From Eledone cirrhosa (lineage: Eukaryota), in NCBI GenBank assembly GCA_964016885.1, contig OZ024758.1:28458001-28522000 (forward strand): a stretch of DNA of 64,000 nucleotides. The letters are read 5' to 3'. The stretch's first letter is position 1. Each line of letters begins with the position of its first letter. Of the stretch, positions 18,885-44,514 are shown in pieces. Made by a program: the position numbers and the translations under genes. The notes under the pieces were generated by a model. The model worked only from the letters and a program-made list of their open reading frames with translations. It was not told the origin of the DNA and searched no databases.

Positions 18885-18991
18885 CTCTGCATGATGCTCT
18901 TCATTTTGTTGTAGCACTTCAATGCATAATTCAGCAAGATGAATAACATCCTCCAGACGTTTCTTAGGGGAAACTTCTGCCTGCAGAGATT
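18885..18991 (-). CDS. CADPS: Internal coding exon of CAPS / calcium-dependent secretion activator (CADPS, unc-31)
   Basis: Minus strand reads tcttaattttctttatatttattccacAG|AA TCT CTG...CAT GCA GAG|GTtagta. 107 nt, phase 1 in, phase 0 out. Peptide (E)[35 protein letters not shown] matches the vertebrate CADPS segment [28 protein letters not shown] as I recall it. Confidence 0.93.
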
Positions 18992-19523
18992 CTGTGGAAT
19001 AAATATAAAGAAAATTAAGAGAATCTAAAAATTTCGATAAGAGTTGCTAAAATGATTCTTGCATTATATATTATCTTCTATGGGAGACATTGCAGACCTG
19101 TTCAGTGAAAAAGAGACAAAATTAATAAAAATGCAAATTAAAACTTGACACAGCTTCTTTATTCGTAATACAAATGAACAGAAGTAAGATAAATATTGCA
19201 TCCAATATATGTAAAACATTTCTGCAATTTAAAGTTGCGTTTCTATATTGCTTTTAAGCAGCAAATAACTGCATATAAAAGTGTCCTGGAGAAAAAAATT
19301 TAAACATTCCAAGATAATATCTTTATAATTAACTGAGTAATTTGTCTTTGTCAAGAAAATAATATGATATAATGTAATGTGTATGTTGATATATTTATCA
19401 TGATTAAATCTTTCAAATGTACAATATTTTTTCAAATATCAATTTTAAAAGTTAGAATGGAATATTTTGCAACAACACCAGTATAATCAGAAATAGGAAG
19501 TGTAAAAATAAAATGTTTTTCAC

Positions 19524-19830
19524 CAGTGATTCTCAATGTAGGCCCTTACATCCACAAGTGAGCCTGAGAAATTTTTTAATGGGCCTGGAGTTGACTCAAG
19601 GAAAATAGGTGGACTTTGACATTCTATTTGTTTTTCCTTGGAAGTTCAACTTGACAAGTTAATAGACAGCAGTGTAGTCATTAGTCAGGATTCATATTTT
19701 CTACTACATATTGTTTTCATAAATAAAATGTATTTCCTGTTACATGGAATTTCTATTTGTGCTTATGTGGGCCAGAAATGTTATTGACATAATAAATGAG
19801 CCACAAGGAATAAAAGGTTGAGAAACACTG
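19524..19830. mobile_element. hAT-type MITE
   Basis: TIRs cagtgattctcaa / ttgagaaacactg; flanking 8-mers tttttcac and ctttatac may be a decayed TSD. Confidence 0.7.
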
Positions 19831-20079
19831 CTTTATACTAAACAATTAGAATAAATTAATCTTTTATGGAAGAGTAGATTAATAGAAAATTTATTACATA
19901 TAAGAATTGAAATACACTAAACATATAATGGAATTGAAATACACTAAAACAATGATAAATTAAATAACATTAAATCTTGTAAGCTGTATTGATAGTGTCA
20001 AGTGTCATTTGTAACTCAAAGCAGAAAGAAGTCTATTTCCTTTGCAAGACTTGCCAGACTGGTAAACTCAAAGTAGTTT

Positions 20080-21600
20080 GTATCTAATTTGATCTCTAAG
20101 CCTATGTCTGCAAGAAAACTGGGGGGTGAGAAAAGAATACCAGAAATGTGCAATTCTTGAGAAGAATTTTGGATATTTTAGTTCAGTATGGGATCTGTGG
20201 AGTGAGACAAAGTAAGAGTGATATGAGAAGGGAGATAAGTGGGTTAGATGCAATTAAGAGGAAGGGGTAGCCACCTAGTTCATTTAGAAACAATTTTTGA
20301 AGCTATAAAAGAGGATGAAGAGGAAACAGCACACTTGTAACCTTTCGTTGATACCTTCTGTTTGATGTTGTCTAGGCTGCTTGTATGTGTAGTAGCAAAC
20401 ACTCCTAGACATGAAGGATAATTGAAGTCTAAACAACATTGATAACACTACTATCTCATGTCCTTTGCAAAACAGATGAATGTTGCCTCATGCATTACCT
20501 GGGAGTATAGTAGGGGAGAGGTACTGAAAGAACCAGTTCAACTTGCAGTGTTTATTCTTGCAGATGACCAACTTAGTCCCAATTGTAATAAGTTTGAAGG
20601 TGATATCAGGGATTCCAAGGCACTAGAGGTTTTCACAACTGTGAGTTTAATGAATCTGGTACTTTGACAACTTGTGAAGTCTTAAATGAGCTTCATATGG
20701 GACAGTAACTGATCATAGCTGAAGTTTTATCTGGCCCTAAAGAGAGACCATCAAAGATTGTGTAGTGAACTTAACATCATACTGATGTTATGTTCACAAA
20801 AGCAAGAAACAACAATTGAGAGATACAAGAGAGAAAACCTCTTGTAGATTTGGCTCTATGGAAGTTGTACTGCTAACCACCGAGGAAGGAGAGGGACTTA
20901 AATTAACAAAAGAATTGATTGTCTACAACTGTTCCCATCACCTTTGAGATATCAGAAGCATGAGTAATTGGATGGTAACTGTTGGAGTGGAAAACTAGGG
21001 TTTTGGAAGAGTTTTTAAATGCTTATGATATGGAGTTGGAAGAAGAGCAGGTATCAAATAGGTGAAGAGAGAGTGTAATTAGTGAGAAAACTGCTTACAG
21101 AACCATCTTGATTGAAGAATACTGAATAAAAGATTTTTCAAAACTGACAAGAAACTAAAAGGATAAAATGCAAGATGCACTCACATGATGTGCAATACAA
21201 GATGCACTCACATGAGTGCAATGTAGAAGGTGCACTCACATGATGTACAATGTAGAAGGTGCACTCACATGTGCAATGCAAGGTGCACTCACATGATGTG
21301 CAATACAGAAGATGCACTCACATAATGTGCAATGCAAGGTGCACTCACATGATGTGCAATGCAGAAAGACATCTCTTGCATTTCTGATGCTTGTTGTGCT
21401 TTTGAGGTGATAGATAAAACTCTAAGTTACTAATGATTGAGAATACCCTTTGGTTTGTAGTTCTGCAGCTCAACTGGCGGTAAACCATCTGGTACATTGC
21501 TATTATAGATTTTGTAGTGTAAGACATGCTAAGGAGTTAAGGTTATGGTCACTCTATATAAGATGAAGCTCTTACACTACCAGGAGTAGGTAGCATAAAA
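20080..21600 (-). mobile_element. Highly decayed LINE (CR1/L2/Jockey group)
   Basis: Minus ORF 20068-20253 (KFFSRIAHFWYSF) resembles the FF.R...WNSLP terminal motif; only faint motifs upstream. Confidence 0.4.
21168..21365. repeat. ~28-bp tandem repeat (g[a/g]tgcactcacatgatgtgcaat...), ~7 copies
   Basis: tgcactcacat recurs about every 25-30 bp. Confidence 0.9.
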
Positions 21601-41767: not shown

Positions 41768-42020
41768 TTCTTCTTCTTCTTTGCCCACTTATTCCTGAGA
41801 GGGTCATGGGGGAAGAGTCTTCAAACACTCCTTCCAGTGAGTTCTGTCAGAAGAAACCATCTCTAACTGATCCGGTTGGATCCCCAAGCGTGATCAACGA
41901 AGCTCATGGATGTTATCCAACCATCTTGCTCAGGGCCGACCCCTAGGTCTCCTACCTGTTGGTTTTATCCGTAAAATCTGTCCAGTGATTCTTTCCTGAG
42001 ACATTCTAACCACATGGCCA
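41768..42020 (-). mobile_element. RTE-clade LINE 3' fragment
   Basis: Minus translation GRRPRGRP*ARWLDNIHELR*SRLGI; (aag)n tail. Confidence 0.7.
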
Positions 42021-43910
42021 TAGTATGCTTGACATATATTTTTCAAAGATTTCAAGAGTTAAAAAGACTAAGTTATCTCACATGGATATCATTGTATCTT
42101 TCCCTCACTCTCCCACATGAGACACTTTGTTCACTCTCCTACTTACCTTCACCCATCTATGATGATACTTATCACCTGCCTCTCAATCCAATACTTTCCT
42201 CCTCTACAACAAACCATCTATTTTTTCTCACCAACAAGATTTTTAACTGGCATCTACCAGTCACTTACCATTACAGGTCTCTGTTACTAACTATTACTCT
42301 CTCTCTCTCACTCCTACCATCACACAAATTCCATAGCATTTGTGAAGCAGAGATCTAAAGTGTTGTTGACTAAGCTTGAACATAGTATTATTTATTCCAT
42401 AAACAGCATATTAGAAAGGTCAAGTGGAGATTCTGCTTGTCTTTTCTGTCTCAATCTACTTTTTATGAGATGTGTCTTGACGCTCACTCTTGGACTACTC
42501 AAGCACTTCTGTACTAAGAGACATATGCTACTAACTTATACTCAATAAATATCTCAGACAATTTTGATGAAAATGTTCAAACAGTCTCACATGTCTTTGC
42601 TGGATTGCTCATGTTTCACATGCATAAGTGTTAAAATGACACAAGCCTCTTAAACATTCAACTTTATGTCAAAGTATCCTTTTTACATAAGCATTTATGA
42701 ATACACACACATGCATATATTCATTGGCTCTCCTGAGTTTAGCTACCCTTTCACAGGTTTCGTTTTTCATCCAACAAGGGTTCAAAAACAATCCCTCTCA
42801 AAAGCAATGCAAGCTTGGTGGGGTTACCAGTTTAGTTGCTAACTGTCTGTATATGTCCAAGTTCTGATAGTTCAGGTGAATATTCAGTGATACACATGTG
42901 GGCACACAGAAACACATATACATGTATAAACACACATATAAAGAGGAATATGGATCTAAGCCTTAAATGTTAAAGTGGAAAGATGAATGCATAAATGCAT
43001 GGAAATAATGACCAGAAATAACAAGCAATATGATACATTTTCCAGAAACTAGTGGAGGGCATTGGGGTAGGAACACCTCTAAATTGCATGCATAGTGATT
43101 TTCATTAACAAACAGAAAACACAAAAGTAGTCCTAAAGGCTCTATTAATCAACTAAAGGAATTAATATAAAATAAACAGCTAATGTGTGAGAATGTGAGA
43201 GGAAAAGGTGAGGTTGAAATAAATAAATAAATAATGATAAAGTTTGTAAAGATCCATGGCTTAGAGGTTAAAGTGTTGACCTCACAGTTGGGCAGTACAT
43301 TGTGTCATTGAGCCATGCATTTCATATTGCTCCAATCTACCCGGCCAGAGACTAACCTTGTGATGGACTGATTTCCTATTCAAGAGATCATCTTGTATAC
43401 TAAGTTACTTAACACCTTATAAAATCAGAATTAGCTCCGGACCGATCAGCTTTTAAGTTTGAAATAGACTTTAATTGTTTTTATCTTAACTAACAATTTC
43501 ACTCTTGGGCACTTTTTCTTTGAAAAAAGAGACAATACAGAATGAGGAGGAGTCTTTTTATCATGTTGAGACAAGGCAACTTTTCTTGTGATAGCACCAT
43601 GATAAAATGCACCCAGTACACTCTGTAAAGTTATAGATCATCAAACAGAGACACTGTAGAGTGGAGAGGACTCCTTAGTCTTGTTGAGAATATGACAATC
43701 TCTCAAGAGCTGCTGCTATGATAAAATGCACCAAGTACACTCTGTTAAGTACAGCCCATGACAACATGGAATGTGTACACAAAAGAATAATGATGATAAC
43801 GATGATGATGAAGAAACTAATCTCAATTCAATGCTAGTAAATGTTACTTTTAAATGCTTGATAGCAGTATAAATAATATTTTAAATATACACAAGGAAAA
43901 TATAATTGAT

Positions 43911-44133
43911 TTAACCCTTTAGCATTTAAATCGGCTGTATCTGGCCAGAACTCCTTCACCTCTTTCTGTTCAAACTGGCTGTAACTGGCCACTGATGTTA
44001 AGGTATTGTTCACAAAATAAATAATATCAAAATCTCATAGATTGGATATTATGTGAAATAATTATGTGAGGTAAAGCCTTTGGCACAAAAATACAATAGT
44101 AAATGTTGAGTAAAGTAAATGCTAAAGGGTTAA
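43911..44133. mobile_element. piggyBac-type MITE family A
   Basis: TTAA-ccctttagcattta...taaatgctaaaggg-TTAA. Confidence 0.88.
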
Positions 44134-44481
44134 TGTAGAAATTAATTCTGTGATTTAAAACAAAATTTGTGGCTTAATCAAGTATTTTTAAAACCACAAA
44201 ACCAAGACCATATTATGCTATTCTAATTAATGATATGCCTCAATAACACACACACATGCACACACACACACATTAATTAATTAAAATCTAATTATAAATA
44301 TTAATTATTTTGTAAAATATGTGAGGTGCAGGAGAAAACCCCCAAAAAACAACAAAGATAACAACAAAAGACAGAAGAAAGAAAAAGTATTATACATCTA
44401 TTTAATACTACCAGAATGAATATCATGCAAAAATGAATATGAAAATGTGTAAACAGGAGTGCATAAGTTTATAGCACCTAC

Positions 44482-44514
44482 CACCTGAAACAAGCCCTGC
44501 AGCAGCAGCAGCAG
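44482..44514 (-). CDS. CADPS: Candidate 33-nt (or 30-nt) symmetric phase-1 microexon of CADPS, (A)AAAAAGLVSG
   Basis: Minus strand: cccactttttttactccAG|CT GCT GCT GCT GCT GCA GGG CTT GTT TCA GGT G|GTAGGT. Second in-frame donor CAG|GTGGTA gives 44485-44514. GC-rich island in AT-rich non-repetitive DNA, no stop in phase 1. Confidence 0.6.

Follow-up and report, generated by a model that had tools for sequence, protein, structure and literature searches.

The 64,000-nt window of Eledone cirrhosa DNA analyzed here holds one exon of CADPS (CAPS/UNC-31), preceded on the same strand by a very long intron in which two tiny exons had been proposed. This raises the question of whether such exons are spliced into CADPS transcripts and, if they are, what the few residues they add may do.

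The CADPS exon and its upstream intron

The coding features considered in the window are as follows.

18885..18991, minus strand: constitutive CADPS exon (main exon), 107 nt, borders phase 1 to phase 0
29549..29560, minus strand: 12-nt cassette microexon, phase 1-1, adding EEQQ; acceptor cag, donor gtgagc
44482..44514, minus strand: 33-nt cassette exon, phase 1-1, adding AAAAAAGLVSG; donor gtaggt
18992..64000, minus strand: intron space between the upstream exon ending in AKIE and the main exon, >45 kb; the AKIE exon lies outside the window

The gene is CADPS. The peptide encoded by the main exon (18991..18885, acceptor cag, donor gttagt) matched the Pfam MUN family PF06292 (DUF1041) with an E value of 1.5e-8 (34.6 bits against a cut-off of 24.2) and the rat CAPS1 structure 6a68 with an E value of 1.8e-9, and its top named match was Octopus sinensis CADPS (97% over the aligned stretch). 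These matches bear out the identity assigned by the first-pass annotation. The main exon encodes the first helix of the SNARE-binding DAMH part of the MUN region, its sequence contains the CAPS-type helix ending in EEHHAE, its borders are conserved across many animals, and contigs from the runs span it end to end. The O. sinensis orthologue displays a C2-PH-MUN architecture (Pfam; PDB 7vs3, 1wi1 and 6a68), of which the window contains one constitutive exon only. Searching the 64-kb window by tblastn with three octopod isoforms returned the main exon as the sole match and no further CADPS exon, and the AKIE exon, an 18-nt exon and the downstream KSSKKVEN and LRDK cassettes were not found in the window. 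Within the window, this intron space includes a pair of long tandem arrays as well as fragments of retroelements.

The intron between the 12-nt exon and the main exon is 10,557 nt long, and 25,490 nt separate the latter from the 33-nt exon. Both small exons have canonical AG/GT sites, preserve the reading frame and fall within the 51-nt size limit for microexons; a stricter limit is 27 nt, which the 33-nt exon exceeds. Half of the 33-nt exon is a trinucleotide (GCT) run, and its two possible donors, giving a 30- or a 33-nt exon, are both weak (4/7 consensus matches). A splice-pattern scan, with scoring thresholds of our own choice based on the splice-site consensus, returned five frame-keeping candidates under loose thresholds, compared with a mean of 9.1 in shuffled sequence, and one candidate under stricter thresholds, compared with 1.4 in shuffles. 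The splice-site pattern by itself is not above chance, and splice-site scoring was rejected as proof of the exons because candidates occur at chance frequency; it is the transcripts that carry the case. Four other scan candidates (43048-43013, 21154-21149, 3603-3580 and 3502-3488) had no match among the isoforms listed.

Inclusion and skipping of the small exons in transcripts

Contigs were obtained from four of 20 public runs presumed to be RNA, which come from three related organisms, not the source species, and carry no tissue labels; contig depth was not taken as a measure of inclusion level. Two contigs of run X9 joined the 12-nt exon to the main exon, and the loose end mapped uniquely and exactly to 29551-29561 (2/100 shuffles). 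A contig of run X1 joined the 33-nt exon to the main exon, its loose end mapping uniquely to 44483-44512 with one mismatch (0/100 shuffles), which, the codon being read by hand, is synonymous. The contig of run X16 skipped both small exons, and that of run X5 stopped at the main-exon border, with no spliced upstream junction seen. The two same-strand, frame-keeping exons proposed about 10.6 and 25.5 kb upstream are thus confirmed at the positions listed above and are joined to the main exon in contigs.

Database isoforms gave a concordant picture. Among the 15 octopod isoforms listed of 42 in the cluster, the 33-nt exon was present in ten (O. sinensis, O. bimaculoides and Argonauta hians) and the 12-nt exon in three, all of them from O. 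sinensis, and the EEQQ and AAAAAAGLVSG peptides were found letter for letter. In the octopod CADPS entries (e.g. XP_036356657.1 for O. sinensis and XP_052822536.1 for O. bimaculoides, and GAB1599148.1 for A. hians), the 33-nt peptide is identical, the main-exon peptide is listed as identical and the small exons follow the same order, whereas the 12-nt peptide occurs only in O. sinensis. The RefSeq isoforms are automated models. Since both inclusion and skipping were seen, in contigs of related organisms and in isoforms, the 12- and 33-nt exons are real, optional cassette exons of octopod CADPS. They are also already known in automated gene annotation: the gene and exons had been described as hidden, which they are not, because both are present in RefSeq models for O. 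sinensis and O. bimaculoides.

Two further claims about the exon set fared differently. The alternative donor at 44485, which would give a 30-nt form, was used in none of the 15 isoforms listed of 42 in the cluster and was absent from the X1 contig, so that only the 33-nt donor is supported. The proposed combinatorial use of microexons was upheld, as octopod database isoforms carry five insert combinations (0, +6, +11, +17 and +21 residues), but the set has three members rather than two, the third being an 18-nt cassette (ANERAA) positioned outside the window.

The small exons could in principle be chance splice-site look-alikes or gene-prediction artefacts, as the chance-level frequency of the pattern and the automated origin of the RefSeq models would allow. 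This reading is refuted by contigs in which exact junctions connect the small exons to the main exon over 10.6 and 25.5 kb, unless these derive from a processed copy, which would leave three different forms in different runs unexplained, and the peptides recur in the annotations of three species. We therefore regard it as exceedingly improbable.

Putative splicing control of the small exons

The following elements lie near the two exons.

29563..29798, minus strand: 236-nt stretch lacking AG and carrying a (TC)n tract, upstream of the 12-nt exon
29499..29504, minus strand: TGCATG (Rbfox-type motif), 45 nt downstream of the 12-nt exon; putative regulatory role
44424..44429, minus strand: TGCATG, 53 nt downstream of the 33-nt exon; putative regulatory role

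The 236-nt zone is the longest of the 1185 AG-to-AG gaps examined and likely aids exon definition of the 12-nt exon. The AG-free zone immediately before the 33-nt exon is just 21 nt, and a 152-nt zone, third in rank among the 1185 gaps, ends 25 nt before this exon. A second TGCATG is located 121 nt upstream of the 12-nt exon, and a further one is at +222 from the 33-nt exon. Both exons have a TGCATG at most 55 nt downstream, compared with 6.5% of intron positions with one within 80 nt, a comparison made post hoc. Long AG-free zones and UGCAUG motifs may together help to define exons across introns of 10-15 kb. A passage in one review places enhancing RBFOX sites on the upstream side of microexons, not downstream (PMC12221596). 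Features reported for Srrm/eMIC-dependent microexons are a UGC near the 3' splice site, a long AG exclusion zone and a UCUC-rich tract (PMC8797185). No UGC, the Srrm3/4 eMIC hallmark, adjoins the 3' splice site of either small exon, the nearest upstream TGC being at -121 for the 12-nt exon and at -225 for the 33-nt exon, which counts against eMIC dependence.

The reading we favor, and hold to be reasonably probable, is that octopod CADPS carries optional exons, likely under Rbfox-type and neuron-biased control, which would likely tune both the binding of partners and dense-core vesicle release. Inclusion of the small exons would then differ by tissue or neuron type. Regulation might instead serve a non-neural secretory tissue (glands, endocrine cells) or a developmental stage, given that CAPS is described as acting in dense-core vesicle release generally (PMC12702071), that the eMIC-type UGC is absent and that the splice form shown varies between runs. 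We consider this quite unlikely, because the CADPS/unc-31 microexons studied so far are reported as neuron-type regulated (PMC12287369) and reports of repeated exon gain at one position concern mainly neural exons (bioRxiv 10.64898/2026.09.05.749416).

The insert position in the protein and in other animals

The inserts are located immediately N-terminal to the SNARE-binding DAMH domain; in the alignment, the solved DAMH chain 6a68 begins at its own residue 11, directly after the insert junction. An AlphaFold2 model of a 304-residue stretch of the orthologue (mean pLDDT 77.8) adopts the DAMH/MUN helical fold, with 6a68 as the best fold match (E value of 3.9e-9) and weak matches to the Munc13-1 MUN structures 4y21 and 5uf7 (E values of 0.07-0.11). 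A full-length model was set aside (mean pLDDT 52, and <50 over residues 529-663). In the 304-residue model, folded in the included form alone, helix 28-68 passes through the inserts with a block pLDDT of 82-86. ANERAA and the alanine run are predicted to lengthen the preceding helix by ~11 residues, GLVSG to break it and EEQQ to sit in a loop. Under the favored reading, the 33- and 12-nt exons, spliced in frame ahead of the constant CADPS exon, would lengthen the helix and loop before DAMH. By analogy with mouse e16a, which occupies the same intron, they may change a protein contact, and altered partner binding would likely tune dense-core vesicle and neuropeptide release.

Mouse Cadps exon 16a (69 nt; peptide GKKREMYEHPVFCLASQVMDLTI) is reported in a preprint to be nociceptor-enriched, to raise CaV2.2 current and to set CaV2.2 coupling and pain sensitization (PMC13232204). 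Like the octopod inserts, it can be included or skipped in frame and sits after AKIE and ahead of the exon with which DAMH begins (before NVGRL), and the main exons at this position read RLITPAKKLED or VSPKKRLED. Mouse e16a begins with a basic GKKR (GKKREMY...) and, compared by eye, has no likeness to the octopod inserts, which were not classed as e16a orthologues (18, 33 and 12 nt against 69 nt, with unrelated peptides). With no visible sequence shared between e16a and the octopod inserts, the CaV2 analogy is one of position only.

The same junction holds small cassettes of unrelated sequence in other molluscs, a nemertean, a brachiopod, insects, sea stars and vertebrates. Vertebrate isoform sequences confirmed the cassettes at the AKIE/ENVGRL junction that the first-pass annotation had noted, with the forms AKIE-ENVGRL, AKIE-ENQKDA-ENVGRL and AKIE-GKKR...LTI-QNVGRL; CADPS1 combines e16a with an 18-nt cassette, and CADPS2 carries GPAEKE. 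Lophotrochozoan inserts in this slot are GRK, GRKGS, GRKKGTG, GRGKNK, AKHGKS, GREQGKK, ATHNGKSK and DHDLSSD, optional in oysters, scallops, clams, snails and a chiton and combinatorial in oysters, scallops and abalone. These and the CADPS2 insert are mostly Gly/Lys-rich and basic, whereas the octopod set is Ala-rich or acidic and has no visible sequence in common with the basic GRK(K) inserts found in other molluscs. An octopod-like insert was present in none of 297 non-octopod proteins, and no squid, cuttlefish or nautilus CADPS protein was among the best 120 matches listed. The notion that this lineage has its own set therefore holds for the insert sequences, octopod-only among 312 proteins, but not for the slot, which is used across bilaterians.

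Such variety in sequence, length and charge between lineages would also be expected if the exons were real yet nearly neutral, with small in-frame exons, one of them on a GCT repeat, arising, persisting and turning over with little effect because the loop before DAMH tolerates insertions. The trinucleotide run that makes up half of the 33-nt exon and the chance-level occurrence of comparable splice-site candidates fit this account. However, two Octopus species and Argonauta share the same peptides from the 33- and 18-nt exons, the sole change observed is synonymous, long AG-free zones and UGCAUG motifs border the exons, and the mouse cassette in the slot has a reported function (PMC13232204). 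We consider near-neutrality possible though not likely. It is unlikely, in our estimate, that the three octopod exons form a CAPS "ruler" (0, 6, 11, 17 and 21 residues) by which neuron types set their own CaV2/SNARE coupling; octopods would then have rebuilt an old slot, losing the basic GRK(K)-type insert seen in other molluscs and acquiring helix-lengthening exons, and the slot would be a bilaterian-wide control point, repeatedly re-filled, with mouse e16a as one instance.

The discovery is modest, since public automated annotation already contains the exons and CAPS-family microexons are in print; a literature search that covered few subscription papers found no paper on the octopus CADPS small exons. 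The useful addition is comparative: in molluscs, insects, echinoderms and vertebrates, one CADPS intron holds small cassettes unrelated to one another, and the octopod isoform series suits asking whether the slot acts by sequence or by length. The pattern is shared with Type I convergence of neural exons, in which different exons arise repeatedly in the same coding region of orthologous genes; that data set includes O. bimaculoides, and CADPS has no occurrence in the main text of the preprint (bioRxiv 10.64898/2026.09.05.749416). Microexons of genes that encode MUN domains, unc-13, unc-31 and mouse Cadps, of the same family as octopod CADPS, are reported to be neuron-type regulated in worm and mouse and proposed to tune release by neuron type, but they differ in sequence from the octopod exons and have EXC-7 and MBL-1 as regulators (PMC12287369). 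Judging from the forward primer in that paper, the microexon of worm unc-31 is probably located downstream of the counterpart of the main exon rather than ahead of it.

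CADPS exon and two small upstream exons

The exon that the first-pass annotation had assigned to CADPS encodes a peptide that matched the Pfam MUN family (E 1.5e-8, by profile comparison) and rat CAPS1 chain 6a68 (E 1.8e-9), with Octopus sinensis CADPS as its top named protein match, confirming the assignment. The same peptide, with no differences, was present in O. sinensis, O. bimaculoides and Argonauta hians, which makes an octopod the most likely source of the window. Two small exons had been proposed upstream.

18991-18885, minus strand: CADPS main exon, 107 nt, acceptor phase 1, donor phase 0
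29560-29549, minus strand: 12-nt exon (EEQQ), 10,557 nt upstream of the main exon
44514-44482 / 44514-44485, minus strand: 33/30-nt candidate (33-nt form, AAAAAAGLVSG), 25,490 nt upstream of the main exon

In the 27 kb upstream, simple scanning yielded five frame-keeping AG...GT candidates versus 9.1 in block shuffles, and stricter thresholds left one versus 1.4; judged by sequence alone, the number of small-exon candidates was not special. The sole survivor of the strict thresholds was the 12-nt exon, whose AG-free zone of 236 nt was the longest among 1185 gaps examined.

We compared the main exon with contigs of four of 20 candidate RNA runs (X1, X5, X9 and X16, flagged "RNA?"), which stem from organisms coded A, B and F, the window DNA being from organism H. 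The contigs matched exactly the extent of the main exon, and their loose upstream ends varied between runs. Two X9 contigs ran from the main exon into the 12-nt exon (exact match 29551-29561), and an X1 contig ran into the 33-nt exon via a GTG/gtaggt donor (44483-44512, with one mismatch, a synonymous Ala codon as read by hand). An X16 contig, also read by hand, joined the main exon to ...TKISEYAKIE, the AKIE part lying outside the window, with all cassettes skipped. No spliced junction upstream of the main exon was found in the X5 contigs. Spliced RNA is the best explanation for exact splice-site joins that span 10.6 and 25.5 kb, and both small exons are almost certainly real, spliced and skippable, as had been proposed. 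Over 18945-18993, the two X9 contigs differed in mismatches inside the main exon (two versus one), which would reflect either an allele or RNA editing.

Cassette combinations in octopods

The octopod CADPS cluster has 42 members, and among the 15 listed isoforms five forms occurred between AKIE and ESLQ: no insert (n=3), ANERAA (n=2), AAAAAAGLVSG (n=2), ANERAA plus AAAAAAGLVSG (n=5), and both plus EEQQ (n=3). The 33-nt exon was thus present in 10/15 isoforms from three species, and the 12-nt exon in 3/15, from O. sinensis only. The predicted combinatorial use was recovered, including a third, 18-nt exon (ANERAA). Since this exon and the AKIE exon are absent from the window, the intron ahead of the main exon exceeds 45 kb. 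The suggested 30-nt form (donor 44485) occurred in none of the 15 listed isoforms (of 42), and X1 uses the 33-nt donor. The gene and both exons had been described as hidden; the small exons are real, and they and the gene are already annotated in RefSeq models.

In all three listed isoforms containing it, the 12-nt exon was accompanied by the 18-nt and 33-nt exons, hinting that its inclusion depends on them. The RefSeq Octopus models lack an N-terminal region that the Argonauta protein has. Just before AKIE, A. hians GAB1599148.1 has Cys and 14/14 listed Octopus isoforms have Tyr; A-to-I editing would give such a Tyr-to-Cys change, but it may be genomic.

Two further cassettes outside the window, LRDKSKLSPWESNYTS and KSSKKVEN, follow the main exon. 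This second cluster, after EEHHAE, comprises 48 and 24 nt in four combinations, three of which appear in the four runs together; X1 and X5 also contain intron-retaining contigs past the main exon. This downstream junction is variable in other animals too, and six further optional residues (RAWGSS) occur later in the protein.

The same junction in other animals

Optional inserts at the AKIE/main-exon junction were found in scallops (GRK, GRKGS), oysters (GRK plus GSGST or GSGTLT), a clam (AKHGKS or DHDLSSD), snails (GRKKGTG, GRKKGAG), a chiton (GRGKNK), abalone, termites and sea stars, and inserts were present in nemertean and brachiopod proteins. Vertebrate CADPS2 has GPAEKE there, and CADPS1 isoforms carry an 18-nt cassette, a 69-nt cassette or both, in agreement with the small vertebrate exons named in the first-pass annotation. 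The proposal of a lineage-own microexon set stood in part: an octopod-like insert occurred in 0/297 non-octopod proteins spanning both junctions (a vertebrate-rich set from the matches returned), but cassettes occupy this slot in many animals. No squid or cuttlefish CADPS protein was among the matches listed in the protein database searches. We regard it as rather unlikely that the small exons are near-neutral, tolerated insertions.

The 69-nt cassette is mouse Cadps e16a, which a 2026 preprint reports as nociceptor-enriched and enhancing CaV2.2 currents (PMC13232204). Microexons in CAPS-family genes are already in print, with worm and mouse MUN-gene microexons described in PMC12287369. Another preprint, which includes O. 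bimaculoides, describes the recurrent gain of distinct exons at a single position as type I convergence (10.64898/2026.09.05.749416); its main text does not name CADPS, and its supplements may list these exons. Our literature search, which covered few subscription papers, found none that deals with octopus CADPS cassettes or treats this intron as a hotspot shared between lineages. The main value of the octopod exons lies in the link to e16a and in the helix-length hypothesis.

Predicted structure, regulation and the surrounding intron

In-frame inclusion of the cassettes is optional and combinatorial. The alignment to the solved DAMH chain (6a68) begins just after the junction, DAMH being the SNARE-binding part (PMC12702071). 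In an AlphaFold2 model of 304 residues of the all-included isoform only (mean pLDDT 77.8; top fold match 6a68), the helix before the junction is predicted to continue through ANERAA and the alanines, GLVSG to end it, and EEQQ to lie in a loop, modelled with lower confidence, that includes a short helix. The full-length model was unreliable over this region.

TGCATG lies 45 nt downstream of the 12-nt exon and 53 nt downstream of the 33-nt exon; the former also has one upstream. By the usual position rule for Rbfox, downstream TGCATG enhances inclusion, and the downstream motifs would fit Rbfox-type enhancement. In one review, the enhancing sites are instead put upstream (PMC12221596). Neither the 12-nt nor the 33-nt exon has the UGC near the 3' splice site that marks eMIC-dependent microexons (PMC8797185). 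Regulation outside the nervous system appears improbable. If they act like e16a and like the MUN-gene microexons of worm and mouse (PMC12287369), the inserts would likely adjust, in a cell-type-biased way, how CAPS contacts channels, SNAREs or the N-terminal domain of CAPS itself. The full chain, from optional exons through a longer helix or loop and Rbfox-type control to a cell-type-biased change in CAPS contact, is the reading we cautiously favor.

The CADPS intron contains two tandem arrays, at 45957-64000 (48-nt unit, 376 copies, 95% matches, continuing past the window end) and, between the two small exons, at 34951-40662 (46-nt unit, 124 copies). Their long open frames, which reach ~1200 codons, seem to arise merely from the repetition. 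The 273-nt stretch 45032-45304, which in gene direction lies ~520 nt ahead of the 33-nt exon, is self-complementary (91% identical when aligned with its reverse complement) and could form a long hairpin in the pre-mRNA. An inverted duplication (9616-10351 / 11978-12717, 740 nt, 92%) flanks minus-strand ORFs 11992-11351 and 11379-10876, which resemble a retroelement end carrying a GIY-YIG-like stretch. Plus-strand 30598-32151 and 6920-7412 contain broken reverse-transcriptase-like frames, LINE-like by eye.
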